A stretch of 64,000 nt of DNA from Bdellovibrionales bacterium (GTDB taxonomy: Bacteria > Bdellovibrionota > Bdellovibrionia > Bdellovibrionales > UBA1609): assembly GCA_965200875.1 (NCBI GenBank), contig OZ241456.1, forward strand, positions 1,536,001-1,600,000, written 5' to 3'. Below are positions 1,239 to 13,185 of this stretch, one piece after another. The translations under genes were made by a program, and so were the position numbers. The notes below the pieces were generated by a model, which saw nothing but the letters and a program-made list of their open reading frames with translations, ran no database searches and was not told the DNA's origin. Numbering within the stretch: position 1 is the stretch's first letter; each line of letters begins with the position of its first letter.

Positions 1239-1296
1239 AAAAATAGTATTTTTTAACTATTTTTAAATTGATTTTGGATAAAAAACGGCGTAAAAT
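1239..1296 (+). promoter_or_regulatory. Promoter (likely leaderless transcript) with upstream inverted repeat
   Basis: TTGATT(1268)-17 bp-TAAAAT(1291), ATG 6 nt after the -10, no SD. IR AAAAATAGT-N8-ACTATTTTT at 1239-1264. Confidence 0.55.
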
Positions 1297-1302
1297 GGCC
1301 AC

Positions 1303-4300
1303 ATGATATATAAAAAACGAATTATTAAATTACCAGAAAACAGCCATACTTTTCTGTTTGGTGTACGGGGAAGTGGAAAAACCGCACTTTTAAATAAGAG
1401 ATTCCCATCTCAACAGTCGCTACATATTGATCTATTGGATGAATCTCTTTATCAAAGCTACCTTTCCAATGTAGCGCAGTTTTATGAAACAATAAGTGCT
1501 TTTGAAAAAGGTGGTGTGATTATTGTGGATGAAATCCAAAAAATGCCTGAGCTTTTAAATGAGGTACATCGCCTTATTGAAGAATCTTCCAGAGGGGAAG
1601 CCCCTGCACGCCAGTTTATTTTAACAGGTTCTAGTGCACGAAAGCTCAAAGCACCAGGGGTAAACTTATTGGCAGGAAGGGCTGGTAAAACGGCACTTCA
1701 TCCTTTTGTTCCAGAAGAGTTGGGCGAAGACTTTAACTTAAACAGTGCTTTAAAATATGGTCTCTTACCTATTGTGTGGTCTCATCACGATAAAGAATTA
1801 AAATTAAAATCTTATGCTGAAGAATATTTGAAAGAGGAAATTCAGGCCACAGCTTTAGTGAAAAATTTACCAGGCTTTGCACGATTTTTAGAAGTGGCTG
1901 GCCTTTATCATGGCCAAGCTATAAATATGAGTGCTATTTCAAGGGAGTGTCAAACTCCTAAAAAAGCCGTACAAAACTATTTTTCCATATTGGAAGATAC
2001 CCTCTTGGGCTTTTTCCTGCCTGCTTACACTCCCCGGTTACAGCTGAGAGAGAGAAAACACAAAAAGTTTTATTTTATTGATCCAGGATTGGCCCGCACT
2101 GTAAGAAAAGACTTTGGACCTGTATCCCATGCAGAAAAAGGCTCCCTTTTTGAAGGGCTGATAGCTCAAATTTTACGAGCTTATAGGGATTATCATTCTC
2201 TCTTTGAAGAGATGTATTATTGGTCTCCGGTGGATTCCCAAAAAACAGAAGTGGATTTTCTGTTAAGAAAGAGGGAGGATTTAATAGCCATTGAAGTCAA
2301 AGCTCGTACCCAAGTTTCTTCTTCAGAATGCAAAGGTCTTAAAGCTATTCAAAAATTGCCGGCGGTTAAAAAAAGAATTTTGGTTTATATGGGAGACACC
2401 ATAAGAAGATCAGAAGATGGTATTGATATATGGCCATTTGATTTTTTTTGCCAAAATCTTCAGGAAGGAAATTTTAATGCGCCAGTTGTTTATACAAAAA
2501 AAAGTAAAAAAAAACCTGAGCTTGGTTTAGCTATACCTTCAAGTAATAACATTTTCACTCCACGAGAACTACAGATTCCCCCTCCAGCAGATGAAACAAA
2601 GTTTGAACAACTGTGCCTTGATTTATACAAACAAGAGTTTGGAGAACCCACTCAACTACATAGTAGCAAGGGCCAAAGCCAACAAGGAGTGGATATTTTC
2701 AGTCAATACGAAGAATCGGAGGGTAGTATAGGTATACAGTGCAAAAAAAGAGAGTACCCAACTGGGAAAATCACAGAACAAGAATTACAGGAAGAAGTGG
2801 AGAAAGCAAAAAGTTTCGAACCACCTTTGAAGAGATTTATTTTAGCCACAACTTGCAAAAGAGATGCCAATATTCAAAAGACTGCGCGTCTTCTTACAGA
2901 AAAGCATAGTAAAAACAATCTTTTTTCTGTGGAAATACACAGCTGGGATGAAATCAAAGAGCTTTTAAGTAAATACCCTAAAGTATATCAACAGTATTAT
3001 GGAACAACAACAGATAATATTGCTTTAAACAACCGGGAATATGCAAAAAAAACAACATCTACTCACTCTTTTAATTTAGACACAATAAAGGAGATAAAAA
3101 GCGAAAATCACCACGCAGAACTTAAAAGAATACAAAAATTACTTAATACAAACCCAAAGACAGCTCTTATTTCATTGGAGGATATTAAAACAAGAGAATG
3201 GGATAAATTAAACAATAAAGTAAAATACAAAGTTTTAATTTATATGGCTGACGCAAAAGCCAAAATGAAGGATAGAAACACAGCTTATGGTTTGATTATT
3301 CAGGCTTTGCAGTTCAATAAAGAGGATGAAGATGCCCGTATGAATTGTGCTTTTGCTTATTGGATGAAAAATAATATAGAAAAATCCAAAGAATATCTTA
3401 AAAAAACCAGAGAGCTCAACCCTCACAACATATCAGCCTGTAATTTGGAAATACAAATCCAATTTAAAGAAGGAAAAAGTATTAAAGAAATTGTGGCAAA
3501 ATTGCCTGAAGATATAAAAAATCAAGCGCAGATAGCTCAATTACTGGCTCATCTCAGTATAAATCAAAAAGATTATCAATCAGCAGAAAAATGGCTGAAG
3601 ATTTTTTATAATAACAGAGAGAAAAACGAAAGTGGGGGTTGGAAAGAAATAAAAGATGAGGCAATCTATGCAGATCTGTCTTTGAACTTGCTTTTGGCAA
3701 AGCCAAATGTTTTTTCAGGAAGACGAGTCCCGGAGAATTTAAAAGAAAAGCTTAATAATATTATAAAAAATTATAAAAAATTAATTACAGATAACCAGTT
3801 TAGCGAATTAAAAGAATTTAACCCAAATTGGTACTTACATTATGCCCTAGCCCTTGAATTAAGTGGAGATCTCGATAAAGCCATTCAGATTCTTCAAACA
3901 GGCATTGATGCCTTTCCAGAAGATGAATATCTAAAATTAGAGTTGAGTCGTCTATTTGAACAAACAGAAAATATAACAAAAAGTATTGAAATATTGGAAA
4001 AACAAATTGGGTTACATTCTTCATCTTCAACAAGTAATATCTCTGTTAAAACCGAAGATGCAAAGTTCGAGCAGTTACATTCTTTTCTTTCAAAAAAAAC
4101 TGATACAACCCAAGATAATATGTCGGAAAAACCTGTTACTTGGGCTTTAATATTAACTGACCTTTATTTTTACAATAATCAAAATGAAAAAGCCTTGGAA
4201 TTATTGAACCAAATAATAAAAAATCCTTCTATGGATCAAGAAGATAATTTGGAAGTGGAAAAATACCAAGTCTTTCAGTGGCTTCAGGCTGAAAACATAG

Positions 4301-6585
4301 AGGAGGCAGAAAAAACATTAAACTCTTTTTTTGAAAAAAACCAAGATGATGTATCCACTTTAATTTTAAAATCTAAATTGGCAAGGGCTAAAACAAAAGC
4401 CCTTGAAGGAAAAACAGAAGAATCCAAGGAGCAGGAAAATATAAGCATTCAATCTCTTAAAGAGGCTTATAAGGTGTTTCAAAATAAAAACTATAGTGAA
4501 GAAACAAACAGTCCTTATTTTGAAAACAGAGAGTGGTTAAGAGATATTCAGCAACTTGCTCAAGAGCTTGGTTTAGCTAAAATGTATAAAGAAGTTGAAC
4601 CTCTTTTGGAGAAAATCACAAATCAAAACCTCGATCACCCTGAGATTTTTAAATTGCTTCATGCTTACTTTGAAAATGGCAAAAACAGGAAGGCCATTAA
4701 ACTGGCAGAAGCTTTGCTTAAAAAATTCCCGGATAGAATAGAACCAGCCAATACCTTGTTTCTTATTTATGAAGACTTAGGGGATAGAGAAAAATCCATT
4801 CAATATTATGAAAATTTTATGCAACACAATCCTGATAACAGCCAGATGAAAATAGAACTGGCTTTGACTTATATAAGAAATGAACAATTAGATAAAGCTA
4901 AAGCTTTATTAAATTACACCTTTAACTTAAGTCAGTTATCTGTAAATGAGATATGCCGGCTCGCACTTGCTTATAACCACACTGACCATCTAAAAAAAGC
5001 TTTGGATATGTTATACCAAAGCCTTAAAAAGTATCCTTCCAATTATGACCTGCAACAATTTTATTCAGGTTTATTCTTTTTTAGAAAAGAAAAATTATTT
5101 TTAACTTCACCAAAAGAAGTCGAAGTGGATTGTTATGTAAAAATTCAAGAATTGAACACAAATGAAATAACAGAAATAATTATTGAAAAAACACCCGATG
5201 AAAAATCAGCAAATATATATACCCCTAATCACCCTTTTGTTCAAAAATTTTTGAGGAAGACCATCAACAGTGTAATTGATCATGCAAACAAACAATATAA
5301 AATTTTGAAAATAAAAAATAAATATATTCAAAAACTTCATGAAATCACTAATAATGCCGAAAAAAGATTCCCTGTAAAACCTTTTATCAAAACAGCTACA
5401 GTGCCAAAATTGGCTACAAAAGAAGATATAGCTCAAGCTCTTAAACAAGTGATTCCAGATACAAAGAAGCATAAAGAAAAAGCATTTCAGTATTATGCAG
5501 AGGGAAGAATGACTATTGGCTATCTGTCGAATATTATCGGCCTGCACCCTATTGAAACTATGGATTTTCTATGGCAATCTTTAGAGCACAAGTTTATATC
5601 TTCCCTTCCGGGTTTGGAAAATTATAAAACTTCACAGGAAATTCTTAATAAAAAAACAGATATTATTATAGATCTTACCTCTCTTTTTATACTGCATTCA
5701 ATAAAAATGGAAAAACATTTTGAAGATAGTCCTTTTAAACTTTATATATGTCCATCCACTATAGAGTCCGTAAAAGAACTAATACAAAAAATGCAACAAC
5801 ATTCTCAAGATGGATTACTTATGGGTGGTTTTGATACGCAGGGTAAATTGATCACTAACCATACTCCTCCAGAAATCATACAGAGAAATCTGAATTTTTT
5901 GGACAATATGCTAAAATGGGCTAAAGAGATTTGTGCCATTAAAACTGTACCAGTGGATTACATCCAGAGTCGCCAAGAAAAATCACATATTGAAAATATT
6001 ATCGGAAAAGAATTTTTAGACCCTTTACTATCATCTCATAATCAAAAAAACATCATTCTGTTATCTGAAGATGGAATGATAGACGCTTTATCCAAAAATG
6101 ACTTAAATATTTTCAGAGTGCGTTTATGGGATATAATACAGTTTTTTAAAAGTCAGTTAATTATAAATGATAGTCAAGCTTTGCAATTCAAAGCTAAACT
6201 GATTCAGCTAAATCAAACATATATTCCAGTGGATCATGAGCTATTGCTTGTTTTATTAAAACAAGCTGGCTATTCCCTTACTGACATTGGTTTTCAAAGA
6301 GGCTTATATTTTATGGGGCCTGTTTCCAATCTACCTGGAGTGATTGAGGTTTTATCCCAATTCCTTAAGGATTTGTTTCTAGAACCAGAACTTTTACTGT
6401 ATCATAAAGAGTTGATTACACAAGAAGTATTAAATAAAGCTTATATGGGAAGAAGAAATATCACACCTCTTGATATAGCCATAAAGCTTAAGCAATCGAC
6501 TCTGGCTAAAACCTTTTTACTGCCGTTTCAGCAAAAAGAGATAGAAAACAGTATTGATTATTGGCTAAAAAATAAAATATATTGA
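1303..6585 (+). CDS. Multidomain protein: AAA_14 ATPase + DUF4143 + restriction-endonuclease-like + TPRs + GreA/B-C-like + PIN-like
   Basis: Walker A GVRGSGKT, Walker B IIVDEIQ. DUF4143 KFYFIDPGL/LFEG/EVDF/IEVK. REase FEQLC..GVDIF..IQCK. Many TPR-like helices. GreAB-C-like TPNHPFVQKFL..YKILKI. PIN-like IIIDLTSL...LLSEDG. Confidence 0.8.
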   Translation: MIYKKRIIKLPENSHTFLFGVRGSGKTALLNKRFPSQQSLHIDLLDESLYQSYLSNVAQFYETISAFEKGGVIIVDEIQKMPELLNEVHRLIEESSRGEAPARQFILTGSSARKLKAPGVNLLAGRAGKTALHPFVPEELGEDFNLNSALKYGLLPIVWSHHDKELKLKSYAEEYLKEEIQATALVKNLPGFARFLEVAGLYHGQAINMSAISRECQTPKKAVQNYFSILEDTLLGFFLPAYTPRLQLRERKHKKFYFIDPGLARTVRKDFGPVSHAEKGSLFEGLIAQILRAYRDYHSLFEEMYYWSPVDSQKTEVDFLLRKREDLIAIEVKARTQVSSSECKGLKAIQKLPAVKKRILVYMGDTIRRSEDGIDIWPFDFFCQNLQEGNFNAPVVYTKKSKKKPELGLAIPSSNNIFTPRELQIPPPADETKFEQLCLDLYKQEFGEPTQLHSSKGQSQQGVDIFSQYEESEGSIGIQCKKREYPTGKITEQELQEEVEKAKSFEPPLKRFILATTCKRDANIQKTARLLTEKHSKNNLFSVEIHSWDEIKELLSKYPKVYQQYYGTTTDNIALNNREYAKKTTSTHSFNLDTIKEIKSENHHAELKRIQKLLNTNPKTALISLEDIKTREWDKLNNKVKYKVLIYMADAKAKMKDRNTAYGLIIQALQFNKEDEDARMNCAFAYWMKNNIEKSKEYLKKTRELNPHNISACNLEIQIQFKEGKSIKEIVAKLPEDIKNQAQIAQLLAHLSINQKDYQSAEKWLKIFYNNREKNESGGWKEIKDEAIYADLSLNLLLAKPNVFSGRRVPENLKEKLNNIIKNYKKLITDNQFSELKEFNPNWYLHYALALELSGDLDKAIQILQTGIDAFPEDEYLKLELSRLFEQTENITKSIEILEKQIGLHSSSSTSNISVKTEDAKFEQLHSFLSKKTDTTQDNMSEKPVTWALILTDLYFYNNQNEKALELLNQIIKNPSMDQEDNLEVEKYQVFQWLQAENIEEAEKTLNSFFEKNQDDVSTLILKSKLARAKTKALEGKTEESKEQENISIQSLKEAYKVFQNKNYSEETNSPYFENREWLRDIQQLAQELGLAKMYKEVEPLLEKITNQNLDHPEIFKLLHAYFENGKNRKAIKLAEALLKKFPDRIEPANTLFLIYEDLGDREKSIQYYENFMQHNPDNSQMKIELALTYIRNEQLDKAKALLNYTFNLSQLSVNEICRLALAYNHTDHLKKALDMLYQSLKKYPSNYDLQQFYSGLFFFRKEKLFLTSPKEVEVDCYVKIQELNTNEITEIIIEKTPDEKSANIYTPNHPFVQKFLRKTINSVIDHANKQYKILKIKNKYIQKLHEITNNAEKRFPVKPFIKTATVPKLATKEDIAQALKQVIPDTKKHKEKAFQYYAEGRMTIGYLSNIIGLHPIETMDFLWQSLEHKFISSLPGLENYKTSQEILNKKTDIIIDLTSLFILHSIKMEKHFEDSPFKLYICPSTIESVKELIQKMQQHSQDGLLMGGFDTQGKLITNHTPPEIIQRNLNFLDNMLKWAKEICAIKTVPVDYIQSRQEKSHIENIIGKEFLDPLLSSHNQKNIILLSEDGMIDALSKNDLNIFRVRLWDIIQFFKSQLIINDSQALQFKAKLIQLNQTYIPVDHELLLVLLKQAGYSLTDIGFQRGLYFMGPVSNLPGVIEVLSQFLKDLFLEPELLLYHKELITQEVLNKAYMGRRNITPLDIAIKLKQSTLAKTFLLPFQQKEIENSIDYWLKNKIY

Positions 6586-7029: not shown

Positions 7030-7338
7030 TTTTTTTTTCAAGGAGGCTAAGGATTTGACAACGCGTCCTATTTTGTATATTTTAAAACATATATGGCGAC
7101 TGGATGAATCAAAAAAGAAATTGAAAAAACCACAGTGAAAGAGGAGGGAAGAATTATGATGCCATTATTACAATGTTCATATGATGAGGCCATAGAAAAA
7201 GGCATGCAAAAAGGCATAGAAAAAGGACGAAAAGAGCTGATTGCAAAATTACTTAAAAGTGGTGTGGATTTGCAGGTTCTTTGCAAAGGCACAGGGCTTT
7301 CCGAAGAAGAAATTAAAAAACTTAAAAAGGGCGACTAA
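7030..7338 (+). pseudogene. Rpn/YhgA-like (PD-(D/E)XK) remnant; C-terminal ORF 7156-7338 intact
   Basis: Typical Rpn tail EKGMQKGIEKGRKELIAKLLKSG...TGLSEEEIKKL. Upstream frame-disrupted fragment DLTTRPILYILKHIWRLDE. GAGGAGG SD before ATG 7156. Confidence 0.65.
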
Positions 7339-7477: not shown

Positions 7478-8491
7478 ATGGCACAAGCAGATTTGTTGGT
7501 GGAGCTGATAAAAAGTGCCAGTGATGGTGATCAAATTTCTTTCCGTAAAATTTCTGAAGCTTTGATCCAAGAAGAAAGAAACAAAGGCCATAGAATACTG
7601 GCAGATCGTTTAATCAAAGCGTTGCGACCTAAAAGTTCCACTAGTTCCCATACTTTCAAAAAAAATGAACATAATAATAATATCCATAAAAAATTTATTT
7701 CTGAAATAACACCGGAAAGAAATTTACACAGCTTGATTTTAACACAAAAAACTCATGATCAACTCAAAGAAGTAATTGAAGAGCAACATAGATCAGAATT
7801 ATTGCATTCACACAATCTGTCTCCAAGAAATCGTTTGTTATTTGCAGGCCCTCCCGGCAACGGTAAAACTACTTTGGCAGAAGCTTTGGCTCATGAGTTA
7901 ATGTATCCTTTGTTTGTTGTCAGATATGAAAACCTAGTTGGTAGTTATTTAGGCGAAACTTCCGGCAGGTTGAAACATCTTATGGATTATGCCAAAACCC
8001 AAAGATGCGTTCTGTTTTTTGATGAGTTTGAAACTCTTGGAAAAGAACGCGGGGACACACATGAAACCGGAGAGATCAAGCGGGTTGTAAGCTCTTTGCT
8101 TTTGCAGATTGACAGCGTGCCTGATTATGTTGTTGTAGTGACGGCAAGCAATCATCCTGAATTGCTGGATAAGGCAGTATGGCGTCGTTTCCAAGTAAGA
8201 ATTAAATTACCCACCCCCACACAAAAACAGCTGTCCCAGCTTATTCAGTCTGTCAGTCAGCGTTGTAAAATAGATTTTGGATACACGCCGGATACTTTGG
8301 CAAAATCCCTAGTGGGAACTAGTTTTTCTGAAGCAGAAGAGTTTTGTTTGGATATTGTGCGTTTTGCTGTGCTGAAAAGACAAACAAAAAACTTGAAGAC
8401 AGTTACTAAAAACAAGCTGGAACAATGGCGTAGTCGATTGAATCCTCCAAAGAACGATCAAAATTGCAGTGGAAAAAGCCACAAACCATAG
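7478..8491 (+). CDS. AAA+ ATPase, IetA-like (usually paired with an S8 peptidase)
   Basis: GPPGNGKT, FFDEFE, SYLGET, DTHETGEIKRVVSSLL, LDKAVWRRF; N-terminal ADLL...EER.KGH.ILADRL; GAGGTG SD. Confidence 0.8.
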   Translation: MAQADLLVELIKSASDGDQISFRKISEALIQEERNKGHRILADRLIKALRPKSSTSSHTFKKNEHNNNIHKKFISEITPERNLHSLILTQKTHDQLKEVIEEQHRSELLHSHNLSPRNRLLFAGPPGNGKTTLAEALAHELMYPLFVVRYENLVGSYLGETSGRLKHLMDYAKTQRCVLFFDEFETLGKERGDTHETGEIKRVVSSLLLQIDSVPDYVVVVTASNHPELLDKAVWRRFQVRIKLPTPTQKQLSQLIQSVSQRCKIDFGYTPDTLAKSLVGTSFSEAEEFCLDIVRFAVLKRQTKNLKTVTKNKLEQWRSRLNPPKNDQNCSGKSHKP

Positions 8492-9267: not shown

Positions 9268-9957
9268 CTAAGCGAAAATATAGAGCGCGAAGCACAGGAC
9301 TAAAGCCAACATCAAGGCATCAAAAGCATAACTTGTCACCCAGCTTTTGAATCGGACATATAATGCTTGTCTTATTGAAAGCTTAGGAAGAGAAATTTCA
9401 TCTTCAAAAAACCATGTTAAAGATTCCATTCGCTTAATCATCTCTCTTGCTTTTCTGTTATTCTGGTTGTCTTTGAGTGCCCGCCCGTAACAGGAAATTC
9501 CATAAACCAGCTCATTTTGTTTATGGCAAGACCTCAGAAAATTATCATGAATTTTGTCATCATGCCAATTTTGAACCACTTTTGCCCATTCACCTCTCAG
9601 CTGAAAAGAAGCTCCTGCTCCTTCAATCATCTTAATAAAAACCACTCCACAATAGGAGCATTCCTGATCATTTATAGGCACTTCCTCAGTACATCTAGGG
9701 CATATTTTGGTGGAAATACCCAACCCGGAAGGCGCGGGAGTGGAATTTTTACGCATATCTGCCGGTTTGCCCAAAAGAATATTCTCTGTGTCTTTGGTAT
9801 TGATCCAAAATATTTTCTGGCAGGAGGAACATTGAAAGTCAGGCTGTTCCTCTTCAAATTCATTTGTAAAAGCTTTAAAAACCCGCAAACAATAAGGACA
9901 CCTAATACGCAAAGAAGAAGGAGTTAGAGTTTTTTGCTCTTCATAAAATTGTTTCAT
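9268..9957 (-). CDS. Double zinc-ribbon protein with C-terminal TM
   Basis: CPYC/CSSC and CPRC/CSYC pairs, hydrophobic C-terminus. Confidence 0.7.
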   Translation of the reverse strand: MKQFYEEQKTLTPSSLRIRCPYCLRVFKAFTNEFEEEQPDFQCSSCQKIFWINTKDTENILLGKPADMRKNSTPAPSGLGISTKICPRCTEEVPINDQECSYCGVVFIKMIEGAGASFQLRGEWAKVVQNWHDDKIHDNFLRSCHKQNELVYGISCYGRALKDNQNNRKAREMIKRMESLTWFFEDEISLPKLSIRQALYVRFKSWVTSYAFDALMLALVLCFALYIFA

Positions 9958-10081
9958 AATGATACTATATACAAAAAACTGATAAAATGCGAGCTTTTTA
10001 TCTTGAGCCAGCGGAAAAATGTCAGAACTTTTGAGGCAAAATTATATTTAAAACCATTTTTTGCAGTCCCGAGTCCCGAAT

Positions 10082-11797
10082 ATGAACAAAATCAAAAAAA
10101 AACTCAAATTTTATTTTCTGCCCTTATTATCCAGTATTTTAATGGGTACAAGTTATATTCCTTTTCCCTCTTGGGCTTTGTTTTTTTGCTATGTGCCTCT
10201 CTGGACTTTTGCCCTGAAACAAAAGCAAATAAAACCCTTATTAATAGGTGCGTGGCTTTGTCAGTTTATAGCCACTTTAATTGGATTCAACTGGGTGGCC
10301 TATACTGTAAGAGAATTTGGATTTTTCCCCTGGCCTCTGGCGATACTGGGCCTTCTTATTTTCGCCAGTTTCGCCAATTTACATATTCCTATTTCTCTGT
10401 TTTTCTGGTTTATTTCCCGCAAAAGACTTTTACCCCTCTACTCAGAAAATTCAAATGAAAATTTGCCGGATGATAAAGACAACAATTATGGAGATTTATC
10501 AAATTCCAAAACTGCCCAGCTAAAACAAACAAAAAAAGCTATTTTTCCTTTTTTATTCACTTTTCTCACTCTCCCCTTGTATTCCACTTTGGTTATGAAA
10601 TATTATCCCATGATTTTTGATTGGCACTTTGGTTACACTTGGTTTTACATGCGATGGCCTGCCTTTCATACTGCGGAGATATGGGGTTTTCAATTTTTAC
10701 ATACTCTGACTTTGTTCTCCAATCTGCTATTTTTATATTTCTTTTTGTGTGTCAAGAAGGCTCTTAAAACCAAGGCAGTCATTCGAGCCTGTAAGCTTCC
10801 TGTATGGATATTACTGATTTGGCTTTCTTTCTTCGCAATGCTGAATCTCTATGGGTGGTATTTAAAAAACCGTTGGCCAAAGCCAGATCAAATAGCTTCT
10901 GTTCTCCTTGTACAACCCAACATAGAAAACTTAAGCTCGCTGAGTAAAAAATTTAAAGCAGATCCAAGATCTTTCATTCTTAAAACACTGATAAAAGAAA
11001 CACGAACCGGCATTGCTCCTCAAAGAAAAATTGATTTTATTCTTTGGCCTGAAGGAGCGTATCCGTATCCTATCAAGCATGACACAAAAACAGCGAAAAA
11101 CAATCCTGCTCAAAGAAAAGCCGGAAAGTGGCAAATACCCATTGTGCTGTCTGCAATAGGACAACATAAAAAAAAGATAACCAACTCTGTTTTTGTATTT
11201 AACCAAGACGGCAGAATGATTCAAGCTCCTTATGATAAAACCCTGCTATTGGCTTTTGGTGAATATATGCCCGGTGAAAAATGGCTACCCATTAATAAAT
11301 TATTTTCCTATTATGACCGCTCCTTTACAAGAGGAACCGGGGAAAATAAAGTTGTTTTTTTAAATGGCATAAACCTGGGTTTTCAAATTTGTTATGAAGG
11401 TCTTTTTGATTTTTTTACCAGAGACTTAGTCCTGAAAAAAACACAAATTATAGTAAATGTCACAAATGACTCTTGGTACGGAAGCTGGCAGGAACCTTAT
11501 CAGCATTTATATATGACCCTCGCAAGAGCCATAGAGGTCAGACGCCCTCTTATCAGAGGAACCAACACGGGACTATCCACAGTGATCTCCGCCAAAGGGG
11601 AAATCAGTCCCATATCCACCATTAATAAAAGCTCCAGTCGGATTTATTCAGTCCCCTACTATAGCCGGGAAAAACAAACTGCTTTCACAGCATGGGGGTA
11701 TTATATTGATCAATATTTTTTATGGATTTTATTTTTTATCCTGTTATCCTTTTATATTTTGGCACATAAAAATCACCAAAAAAAAATACCTGAATAA
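10082..11797 (+). CDS. lnt: Apolipoprotein N-acyltransferase
   Basis: Multi-TM N-half; nitrilase triad motifs WPEG, YDK..L..FGEY.P, ICYE; NDSWYG. Confidence 0.93.
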   Translation: MNKIKKKLKFYFLPLLSSILMGTSYIPFPSWALFFCYVPLWTFALKQKQIKPLLIGAWLCQFIATLIGFNWVAYTVREFGFFPWPLAILGLLIFASFANLHIPISLFFWFISRKRLLPLYSENSNENLPDDKDNNYGDLSNSKTAQLKQTKKAIFPFLFTFLTLPLYSTLVMKYYPMIFDWHFGYTWFYMRWPAFHTAEIWGFQFLHTLTLFSNLLFLYFFLCVKKALKTKAVIRACKLPVWILLIWLSFFAMLNLYGWYLKNRWPKPDQIASVLLVQPNIENLSSLSKKFKADPRSFILKTLIKETRTGIAPQRKIDFILWPEGAYPYPIKHDTKTAKNNPAQRKAGKWQIPIVLSAIGQHKKKITNSVFVFNQDGRMIQAPYDKTLLLAFGEYMPGEKWLPINKLFSYYDRSFTRGTGENKVVFLNGINLGFQICYEGLFDFFTRDLVLKKTQIIVNVTNDSWYGSWQEPYQHLYMTLARAIEVRRPLIRGTNTGLSTVISAKGEISPISTINKSSSRIYSVPYYSREKQTAFTAWGYYIDQYFLWILFFILLSFYILAHKNHQKKIPE

Positions 11798-11817
11798 AAT
11801 CAGGAGGAGTCATCACT

Positions 11818-13185
11818 TTGAAACACAAAACCATAAAAAACGAACAAAATACCATCTTAAAAATGGGGACGGAGTTATTTAGTTCTCTTAAAAATCCACG
11901 AAAAAATCCACTGAACAAAAAATGGTGGTATGAAAATATTATGCAATGGACTCTCGTCAATTCCAATTTGAAAACAGCCCTTTTTCGCTTTGTGGATGTT
12001 TTTCCCTCTCTCAAAAAAAAAGCAGACATTCCTCTTTTCTTTAAAGAATACCTGAAAGCAAACAACATGCTGTCTCCTTTTTTAAGGATAGGAATCAATC
12101 TTCTACCACCTTCTTTTTTAAGCGCGCTTATTTCGAAACACACAAAGGAAATAGCCCATCTGTTTATAGCTGGAGAAGCCCCCTCAGATATTCTCCCTGT
12201 TTTGAAACAAATCAGAAAAAACAACAACGCTTTTACTATAGATCTCTTGGGGGAGGCCACTTTGTCTGAAAAGGAAGCTCAGATATATCAAAACCGCTAC
12301 ATAGCCATTATGGAACAAATGTATAAGCACAAATGGAATCACAATCCCTTGACAGACGAAGCAGAAAATGGAGAAAACCTCCCTCGCGCCAATCTTTCCC
12401 TTAAAATCACTTCATTGGAATCTCAAATTCTTACAGTCTCTTGGGAGGAAAGCAAAAAAAGACTAAAAAACAAACTTAGAGTTTTATTTCAAAAAGCCAT
12501 GGAGACAAACACTTTTATCAATATAGATATGGAACAATATCAATATAAAGTTCTTACTTTGGAAATTTTTAAAGAGCTTGTTTCAGAACCAGCGTTTAAA
12601 TCTTATCCTCATTTTGGCATTGTGATTCAAGCCTATTTAAAATCTGCTATGGATGATCTGCGCGATCTTTCCCAATTCCTTCGGAAATCAAATCACTCCA
12701 GCCCTATACATATTCGTCTGGTTAAAGGAGCCTACTGGGATTATGAGTTAATCCATAGCAGACAGAATAACTGGCCCTGTCCCGTTTATCTAAACAAGTG
12801 GGAGTCCGATATTAATTTTGAAAACTGCACAACATTTATACTTCAAAATTACCCGAGTTTGAAGCTCGCGGTGGGGTCTCACAATATCCGGTCTATAACT
12901 CACGCCTTAAACTTATCTCAACAAATGAATATTCCAAAAAAAGCGTTGGAAATTCAAACTCTTTACGGAATGGCATCTGCTATCAATACCTGTTTAAGCC
13001 AAAATGGTTGGAGAGTACGACAATATTGCCCTATAGGTGCTCCCATTCCCGGTATGGCTTATTTAGTGCGAAGGCTTTTGGAAAACACTGCCAATGAATC
13101 TTTTATTCAATCCTGGAAAAATACAAAAAATAATATTCCAGAACTGCTGAAATCACCCGCTCCACATAAGAAACATATATTGTAA
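11818..13185 (+). CDS. Proline dehydrogenase (N-terminal half of a PutA)
   Basis: LFRFVDVFP, DLLGE, DMEQ, QAYL, RLVKGAYWD, YLVRRLLEN; AGGAGGAG SD before TTG. Confidence 0.9.
   Translation: MKHKTIKNEQNTILKMGTELFSSLKNPRKNPLNKKWWYENIMQWTLVNSNLKTALFRFVDVFPSLKKKADIPLFFKEYLKANNMLSPFLRIGINLLPPSFLSALISKHTKEIAHLFIAGEAPSDILPVLKQIRKNNNAFTIDLLGEATLSEKEAQIYQNRYIAIMEQMYKHKWNHNPLTDEAENGENLPRANLSLKITSLESQILTVSWEESKKRLKNKLRVLFQKAMETNTFINIDMEQYQYKVLTLEIFKELVSEPAFKSYPHFGIVIQAYLKSAMDDLRDLSQFLRKSNHSSPIHIRLVKGAYWDYELIHSRQNNWPCPVYLNKWESDINFENCTTFILQNYPSLKLAVGSHNIRSITHALNLSQQMNIPKKALEIQTLYGMASAINTCLSQNGWRVRQYCPIGAPIPGMAYLVRRLLENTANESFIQSWKNTKNNIPELLKSPAPHKKHIL

Follow-up and report, generated by a model that had tools for sequence, protein, structure and literature searches.

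The reading frame at positions 1303-6585 (+ strand) of the window, by which we mean the whole stretch of 64,000 nucleotides analysed, runs without an internal stop, as the sequence-only reading had stated, and encodes a single protein of 1760 amino acids (P0001). In this full fusion an AAA_14–DUF4143 ATPase-nuclease is followed by an Mrr-type REase, a TPR array, a GreA/B C-terminal domain (GreA/B-C) and a PIN domain. The protein is a variant of the TPR-GreA/B-C-PIN (TGP) kind which is tied, in one lineage, to a module of the PDC-S01 type; the combination is recurrent and was not found in print as such. The domain anatomy, the intact motifs, the linkage of the two parts and the changes of state between split and fused forms are direct observations. 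Features of the region are listed below.

1268-1296, + strand: sigma-70-like promoter, TTGATT-17-TAAAAT, with the -10 box 6 nt before the ATG
1303-6585, + strand: full fusion ORF P0001 (translation; 9 further full-length fusions)
1345-1719, + strand: AAA_14 ATPase domain (Pfam), Walker A G20-K26-T27, Walker B D76-E77
1834-2472, + strand: DUF4143 (Pfam), PD-(D/E)xK nuclease E284, D318, E331, K333
2473-2562, + strand: variable linker, 30% mean pairwise identity (10 fusions)
2563-3003, + strand: Mrr-like REase (Mrr_cat, 26.4 bits), E435, D464, Q479, K481
3088-5088, + strand: TPR array (Pfam), 32-51% mean identity among fusions
5098-5322, + strand: GreA/B C-terminal domain (1grj, Z 11.4, rmsd 1.6 A, 71 aa)
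5422-5571, + strand: small helical domain before PIN (model; UPF0175 below cut-off)
5665-6093, + strand: PIN RNase domain (PF20698, fold match), D1457, E1488, D1573, D1590
6220-6576, + strand: C-terminal helical bundle, no family match (AlphaFold2 model)

The head had been read as a complete AAA_14 and DUF4143 protein, and both Pfam families are found above their cut-offs (AAA_14 at residues 15-139, 64.6 bits against 27; DUF4143 at residues 178-334, 103.3 bits against 28.1), while residues 1-390 match the PDC-S01 models of PADLOC (E 2e-47). The best Pfam match of the ATPase part is AAA_14; nSTAND6 matches it at E 0.19. Past the linker, the proposed REase-like segment is recovered when residues ~431-519 are searched in isolation (Mrr_cat, 26.4 bits against a cut-off of 21). 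TPR_19, TPR_14, TPR_16, TPR_2 and TPR_6 lie above cut-off in the middle of the protein, and PF20698 (PIN-TPR-GreABC) matches residues 1455-1597 with 61.9 bits against 27.8. GreA/B-C gave no Pfam detection in the query and its assignment comes from a structure model. In an AlphaFold2 model of residues 1266-1760, built on a 100-sequence alignment (pLDDT 94.6), model residues 1-75 (residues 1266-1340 of the protein) match the C-domain of E. coli GreA (1grj; Z 11.4, rmsd 1.6 A, 71 residues) and PIN domains are matched as well, the best being 2mdt (Z 9.3, rmsd 3.0, 117 aa). The earlier TPR, GreA/B-C and PIN calls are upheld by these Pfam and fold matches. A Foldseek search with the C-terminal model gave no match at E<=0.001, with GreA top-ranked, and the UPF0175 match in the small helical domain is weak (E 0.001, 19.2 bits against a cut-off of 27.9). 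A single-sequence AlphaFold2 prediction of residues 1200-1760 reached a pLDDT of 37 and was set aside. PDB sequence searches found no solved relative for the ATPase module or the C-terminal part and only generic TPRs for the middle, and hhalign found no homology between the two halves.

The catalytic residues are strongly conserved. The Walker A and B residues of AAA_14, residues E284, D318, E331 and K333 of DUF4143, residues E435, D464, Q479 and K481 of the REase and residues D1457, E1589 and D1590 of the PIN domain are invariant in all 10 full fusions. K26, D76 and E77 are invariant, and T27 nearly so, in 29 members of the ATPase subfamily, and D464, Q479 and K481 are kept in 57 of the 57 aligned homologs having the column. 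In the PIN domain, 59 of 62 homologs keep D1457, 57 keep D1573 and 57 have an acidic residue at position 1488; D1457 and D1590 are near-invariant in the 100-sequence family alignment. DUF4143 is listed as a PD-(D/E)xK family of unknown function in the accessible text of PMC3424549. Mean pairwise identity among the 10 fusions forms a gradient, with 70% in the ATPase, 69% in DUF4143, 65% in the REase, 32-51% in the TPR blocks, 47% in the PIN domain and 30% in the linker. The TPR array is the fastest-changing folded part and is a mosaic between relatives. In split relatives, the place of the linker is taken by the C-terminal tail, the stop and the intergenic gap.

A protein search (8000 scored candidates) returned 63 homologs besides the query: 9 full-length fusions (44–65% identity), 1 partial fusion, 3 fusions from which the REase and the first block of TPRs are missing, and 50 proteins that have no ATPase part. 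Named matches of the close group are proteins of Bdellovibrionales MAGs. The 50 of 63 homologs that have no ATPase part, and the split state of most relatives at this point, would agree with a misjoined assembly or a lost stop codon in this genome alone. However, the 9 further full-length fusions come from other assemblies, and contigs of two runs cross the ATPase/REase join, which are the spanning sequence and the full-length homologs that the sequence-only reading had named as checks. In the comparison of the junction, made with contigs from 4 of the 7 runs listed, a Logan contig of run X1, which may come from the source sample itself, shows 0 differences over 1575-3663, and a contig of run X4, from another sample and study (labelled as sponge metagenome), spans 2412-3043, where it has 51 other letters and 9 gap letters. 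An artefact of this kind is refuted by the other fusions and the junction-spanning contigs, and we regard it as extremely improbable. None of the listed runs holding the sequence is an RNA run.

TGP conflict systems were defined by Kaur, Iyer, Burroughs and Aravind in 2021 (PMC8195603). In its accessible text, REase is among 13 N-terminal effectors, and the TGP protein is predicted to dock on RNA polymerase, with PIN cleaving the transcript and a suicidal effector as back-up. The same text states, as a tendency outside the domain definition, that these systems are mostly stand-alone with few conserved neighbours. Residues 421-1760 of the query have the domain order of the REase-headed TGP proteins (Kaur 2021; PF20698), and P0042, which is 44% identical over 76% of the query, is GDA46_00495, given as REase+TPR+GreAB-C+PIN in the part of their Figure 2 source data that could be searched. 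The earlier placing of the TPR-GreAB-C-PIN part in a computationally predicted conflict family is confirmed by this entry. Compared with the REase-headed TGP proteins, the query adds a 420-aa ATPase-nuclease head, a module which relatives encode in a conserved gene of its own upstream. The stand-alone tendency does not hold in the query clade, and because the ATPase module lies upstream in 15/16 of its TGP genes we file the clade as a variant and not as a typical TGP member.

In the searchable Figure 2 source data of PMC8195603, GDA46_00495 is listed without its upstream gene, and DUF4143 or AAA_14 gives 0 matches, a count to be read knowing that line breaks of the PDF can hide terms. The nearest oddities there are an SFI-Helicase+REase+TGP protein (MXX90812.1) and VTU02511.1, a protein of 2231 aa known by its automatic 'atpase aaa' defline alone. 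No description of an ATPase–TGP fusion or pairing was found in the literature searched, most subscription papers lying outside its reach; the accessible parts of 10.64898/2026.10.19.760177 and PMC13092281 contain nothing on this fusion, and the openly readable part of that literature yielded no experimental tests of PDC-S01 or TGP. The architecture, of which the sequence-only reading knew no description, was not found in the source data and literature searched, as far as these are accessible.

PDC-S01 is a PADLOC candidate (COG1373; Payne et al. 10.1101/2024.01.29.577857), characterized in the available text of PMC12988326 and PMC13356809 as a very common ATPase + PD-(D/E)xK candidate. The former reports it as ranking fourth in frequency among the defence candidates of prokaryotes and as unvalidated, validation being pending for most PDCs. 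It is described as one gene of about 400 aa, in agreement with the earlier statement that AAA_14-DUF4143 proteins normally stand alone at that size. An AAA_14 ATPase joined to a DUF4143 PD-(D/E)xK nuclease is common to both, but here it forms the first 390 residues of a 1760-aa chain or is tied to a TGP gene. The head is a PDC-S01-like module, not a PDC-S01 gene. Other apparent long DUF4143 proteins, P0066 and P0065, are single clusters, one with an nSTAND3 NTPase and one joined to RTX repeats.

Avs proteins of the STAND kind are NLR-like one-chain proteins with an NTPase, a TPR sensor and an Mrr-like nuclease, in the order effector - NTPase - TPR. The query likewise joins an NTPase, TPRs and an Mrr-like nuclease in one chain and may work like one, and its REase segment weakly matches the N-terminus of the PADLOC Avs2 model (E 2.5e-5). 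However, the order in the query is ATPase - nuclease - nuclease - TPR, with the ATPase not between effector and TPRs; in addition, the best family match of the ATPase is AAA_14, and GreA/B-C and PIN are extra.

Within the family, 15 of 109 genomes have the PIN region, all of them belonging to three genera, and PF20698 is found above cut-off in 15 of the 301 genomes of the order, in the same three genera. These genomes hold 17 TGP genes, of which 16 were counted after one at a contig edge was dropped. The ATPase module is directly upstream in 15 of the 16: ten have a separate co-oriented AAA_14/DUF4143 gene (gap of 3-197 bp), four are full fusions and one is a REase-less fusion. The sole TGP gene of the clade without the module (1/16) is that of L026, at 9772-11876, which is divergent from an AbiEi/AbiEii pair. 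Since the loci descend from one event, 15/16 does not amount to 15 independent observations. The flanks of 15 cassette spans have only 9 short shared matches, which we take to be transposase, Rpn and RM pieces. Because the flanks are mostly unrelated, the cassette must have moved between sites as an intact unit.

Linkage in the reverse direction argues against a strict dependence of ATPase and TGP. Of the 35 best ATPase matches (at least 56% identity), 16 have a TGP gene, or what remains of one, linked to them. The other 19 lack such a link, 1 of them ending at a contig edge. Solo ATPase copies nest among operon copies in the ATPase tree, which fits repeated loss of the TGP gene. The query's own genome holds a second, broken cassette (L001:5570-11489; G000:C1 about 493.6-499.5 kb), in which an intact, 67%-identical ATPase gene is followed after 87 bp by a truncated REase start of 102 aa. 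A 1365-aa SIR2_2 protein stands where the rest of the TGP protein would be expected, and a similar SIR2 gene is convergent to the fused gene of L022. In L023:6041-18457, two divergent cassettes lie 3 kb apart, one split and one a REase-less fusion.

Outside the clade, the C-terminal profile matches 1903 representatives, and 143 of the best 150 are new; none of these 143 carries the ATPase module or exceeds 1508 aa. At six plasmid loci with distant TGP-like genes (6 of 52 records, one locus cut at the record start) no AAA_14/DUF4143 gene was found in the stretch retrieved. In three of these six, on Alphaproteobacterial plasmids (L114:2636-7978, L115:3080-7948 and L117:2639-7984), a gene with a helix-turn-helix (HTH) lies upstream of the TGP gene, in two of them with an Abi_2-like gene next. 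A profile search for longer TGP proteins of 2353-5000 aa gave generic TPR proteins only, a locus search with a single protein gave 1 spurious metagenome locus and 1 known relative in genomes, and the one record from a phage collection is a Salmonella contig.

The fused state changes 7 times on the ATPase tree (42 rows; at least 4 changes forced), 7 times on the REase+TPR tree (60 rows, with 10 full and 1 partial fusions; at least 5 forced) and 8 times on the PIN tree (62 rows). A single clade of fused forms is rejected on the REase+TPR tree (AU test, p 9.8e-7). Read as quick LG+G4 trees with long outgroup branches, on which recombination can also scatter the fused label, these trees show several fusion or fission events in the cassette. 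A sign of recombination is seen in the distal TPRs of the query, which are 64% identical to the unfused P0012 and 46% to the closest fusion, P0002. Four REase-less in-frame fusions with differing joins keep ATPase-DUF4143 and the distal TPR-GreAB-PIN part; these are ascertained, as only in-frame deletions yield the long ORFs that searches return.

Split ATPases of a large subclade carry a tail of ~50 aa, the distal half of which resembles the REase start and might be a decayed copy of it, a likeness that is suggestive only. Locus by locus it is not significant except in L032 (4/500 shuffles). With a tail weight matrix, the REase start is in the top 10 of ~4000 diagonals for 10 of 11 genes and in the same register in 5, the genes not being independent. 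Should the tail be such a copy, a short duplication would have divided a fused ancestor, and deletion would have joined the parts again.

The promoter in front of the query has its -10 box 6 nt before the ATG, from which a leaderless transcript can be inferred. In 22 of the 33 homologous upstream regions a -35 box is found 34-37 nt ahead of the aligned start, and the same promoter stands in front of solo ATPase genes; by eye, the arrangement was not seen at the other six paralogs of the genome. Near the -35 box and across codons 3-6, A-rich boxes recur with a period of ~31 bp, the autocorrelation at lag 31 being 0.426 against 0.324 in shuffled sequence (22 regions). Compared with codons 3-6, the other invariant Arg codons are likewise all CGN. 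Several relatives have a tandem duplicate of the promoter region (window 1240-1320 in the query). At 1147-1204 there is a 23-bp tandem repeat of ~2.5 copies, where a related contig of run X3 is 46 bases shorter.

The near-constant pairing together with repeated fusion hints that ATPase and TGP work together, and the asymmetry of the linkage favours such coupling (TGP without ATPase in 1/16, ATPase without TGP in 19/35). The main rival, to our mind a real though lesser possibility, is that the TGP gene lies behind the ATPase gene solely for its promoter, the parts being independent and the fusions neutral products of deletion. It explains part of the pattern without functional coupling. The ATPase gene is preceded by a conserved promoter, and an operon that lost its first gene would have its second silenced, which by itself would create the asymmetry. 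The linkers have diverged without constraint, either part is found in the absence of the other, and an operon tail that is perhaps a decayed REase-start copy (again suggestive only) would make re-fusion by deletion easy. However, the ATPase is intact in 15 of the 16 cassettes, though internal decay would spare the promoter. Long proteins with the ATPase module are otherwise rare, 13 of the 16 found among 6237 candidates of 684-2000 aa being of the query family, a count which the search tool itself marks as weak evidence.

The promoter boxes raise another explanation, which we think unlikely, namely that the ATPase module is mainly a transcriptional autoregulator of the cassette. The DUF4143 region has a putative helix-turn-helix (residues ~200-245, from our reading of the sequence), which would bind the phased boxes over the promoter and repress a toxic TGP until a phage signal changes the nucleotide state. 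The ~31-bp recurrence of the A-rich boxes is in its favour, and it would account for the rarity of TGP genes lacking the ATPase. However, the boxes, mostly A/T runs, might instead reflect DNA bending or an UP element, the score for an inverted-repeat operator around the -35 box is weak, and no profile confirms the HTH of the ATPase module. A pure repressor would not be expected to be fused to a 1370-aa protein or to keep its nuclease site intact, and solo ATPase genes share the same promoter.

The immediate surroundings of the gene had been described as IS, Rpn and IetA-like remnants. A transposase fragment (121-219) and a fragment of the Rpn C-terminus (7114-7335) agree with this description, but the IetA-like gene (7478-8491) matches positions 1-325 of the 330 in the PADLOC profile and is hence a full-length orphan, not a remnant. 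No IetS lies beside it, S8 peptidase matches being found elsewhere in the genome. Upstream of the window, a defence island (L002:391-13935) contains a ThsB-type TIR gene and what we read from the ORFs as type I RM-like genes with two specificity subunits. Several small genes without assignment are also located there. We count this defence-island setting in favour of an anti-phage role.

The reading we put forward, with confidence that is evenly balanced, is a clade-specific two-part anti-phage cassette in which the ATPase-nuclease heads the TGP protein, as a candidate function suggested by comparison of sequences. In this scenario an ancestor of three small-genome Bdellovibrionales genera would have placed a REase-TPR-GreA/B-C-PIN gene behind a PDC-S01-type gene, and the pair would then have moved as a unit, toggling between split and fused states. 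Following Kaur 2021 and general enzymology, the fast-evolving TPRs would recognise a phage protein. By extension from Kaur 2021, GreA/B-C would dock on RNA polymerase, PIN would cut RNA and the N-terminal DNases would serve as an abortive back-up. The ATPase-nuclease, in the N-terminal effector position of TGP, might act as a second DNase, gated by ATP, which keeps the response in check or releases it; it could replace the REase, as in the REase-less fusions. The NTPase switch and the TPR sensor of the sequence-only reading belong with these predictions. Points that weigh against the cassette are the TGP proteins found elsewhere without the ATPase, the common occurrence of the ATPase subfamily alone, and L026. 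A bolder version, which we consider rather doubtful, would make PDC-S01 a modular ATP-gated controller of an RNA-polymerase-docking TGP, in an NLR-like chain of reversed order (NTPase, two DNases, TPR sensor, RNase) which toggles between split and fused through a decayed junction duplication and has three working architectures.

The C-terminal three quarters of the protein belong to the published TGP family; new is the ATPase module tied to TGP, upstream or fused, in one small-genome Bdellovibrionales lineage. The forms that occur naturally (split, fused, fused without the REase, and solo) are ready-made constructs with which to ask what each of them does and whether the ATPase gates the nucleases. 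If the coupling is real, it would be the first pathway for PDC-S01; if there is no coupling, the family would plainly illustrate how the parts of a mobile cassette can fuse neutrally again and again.
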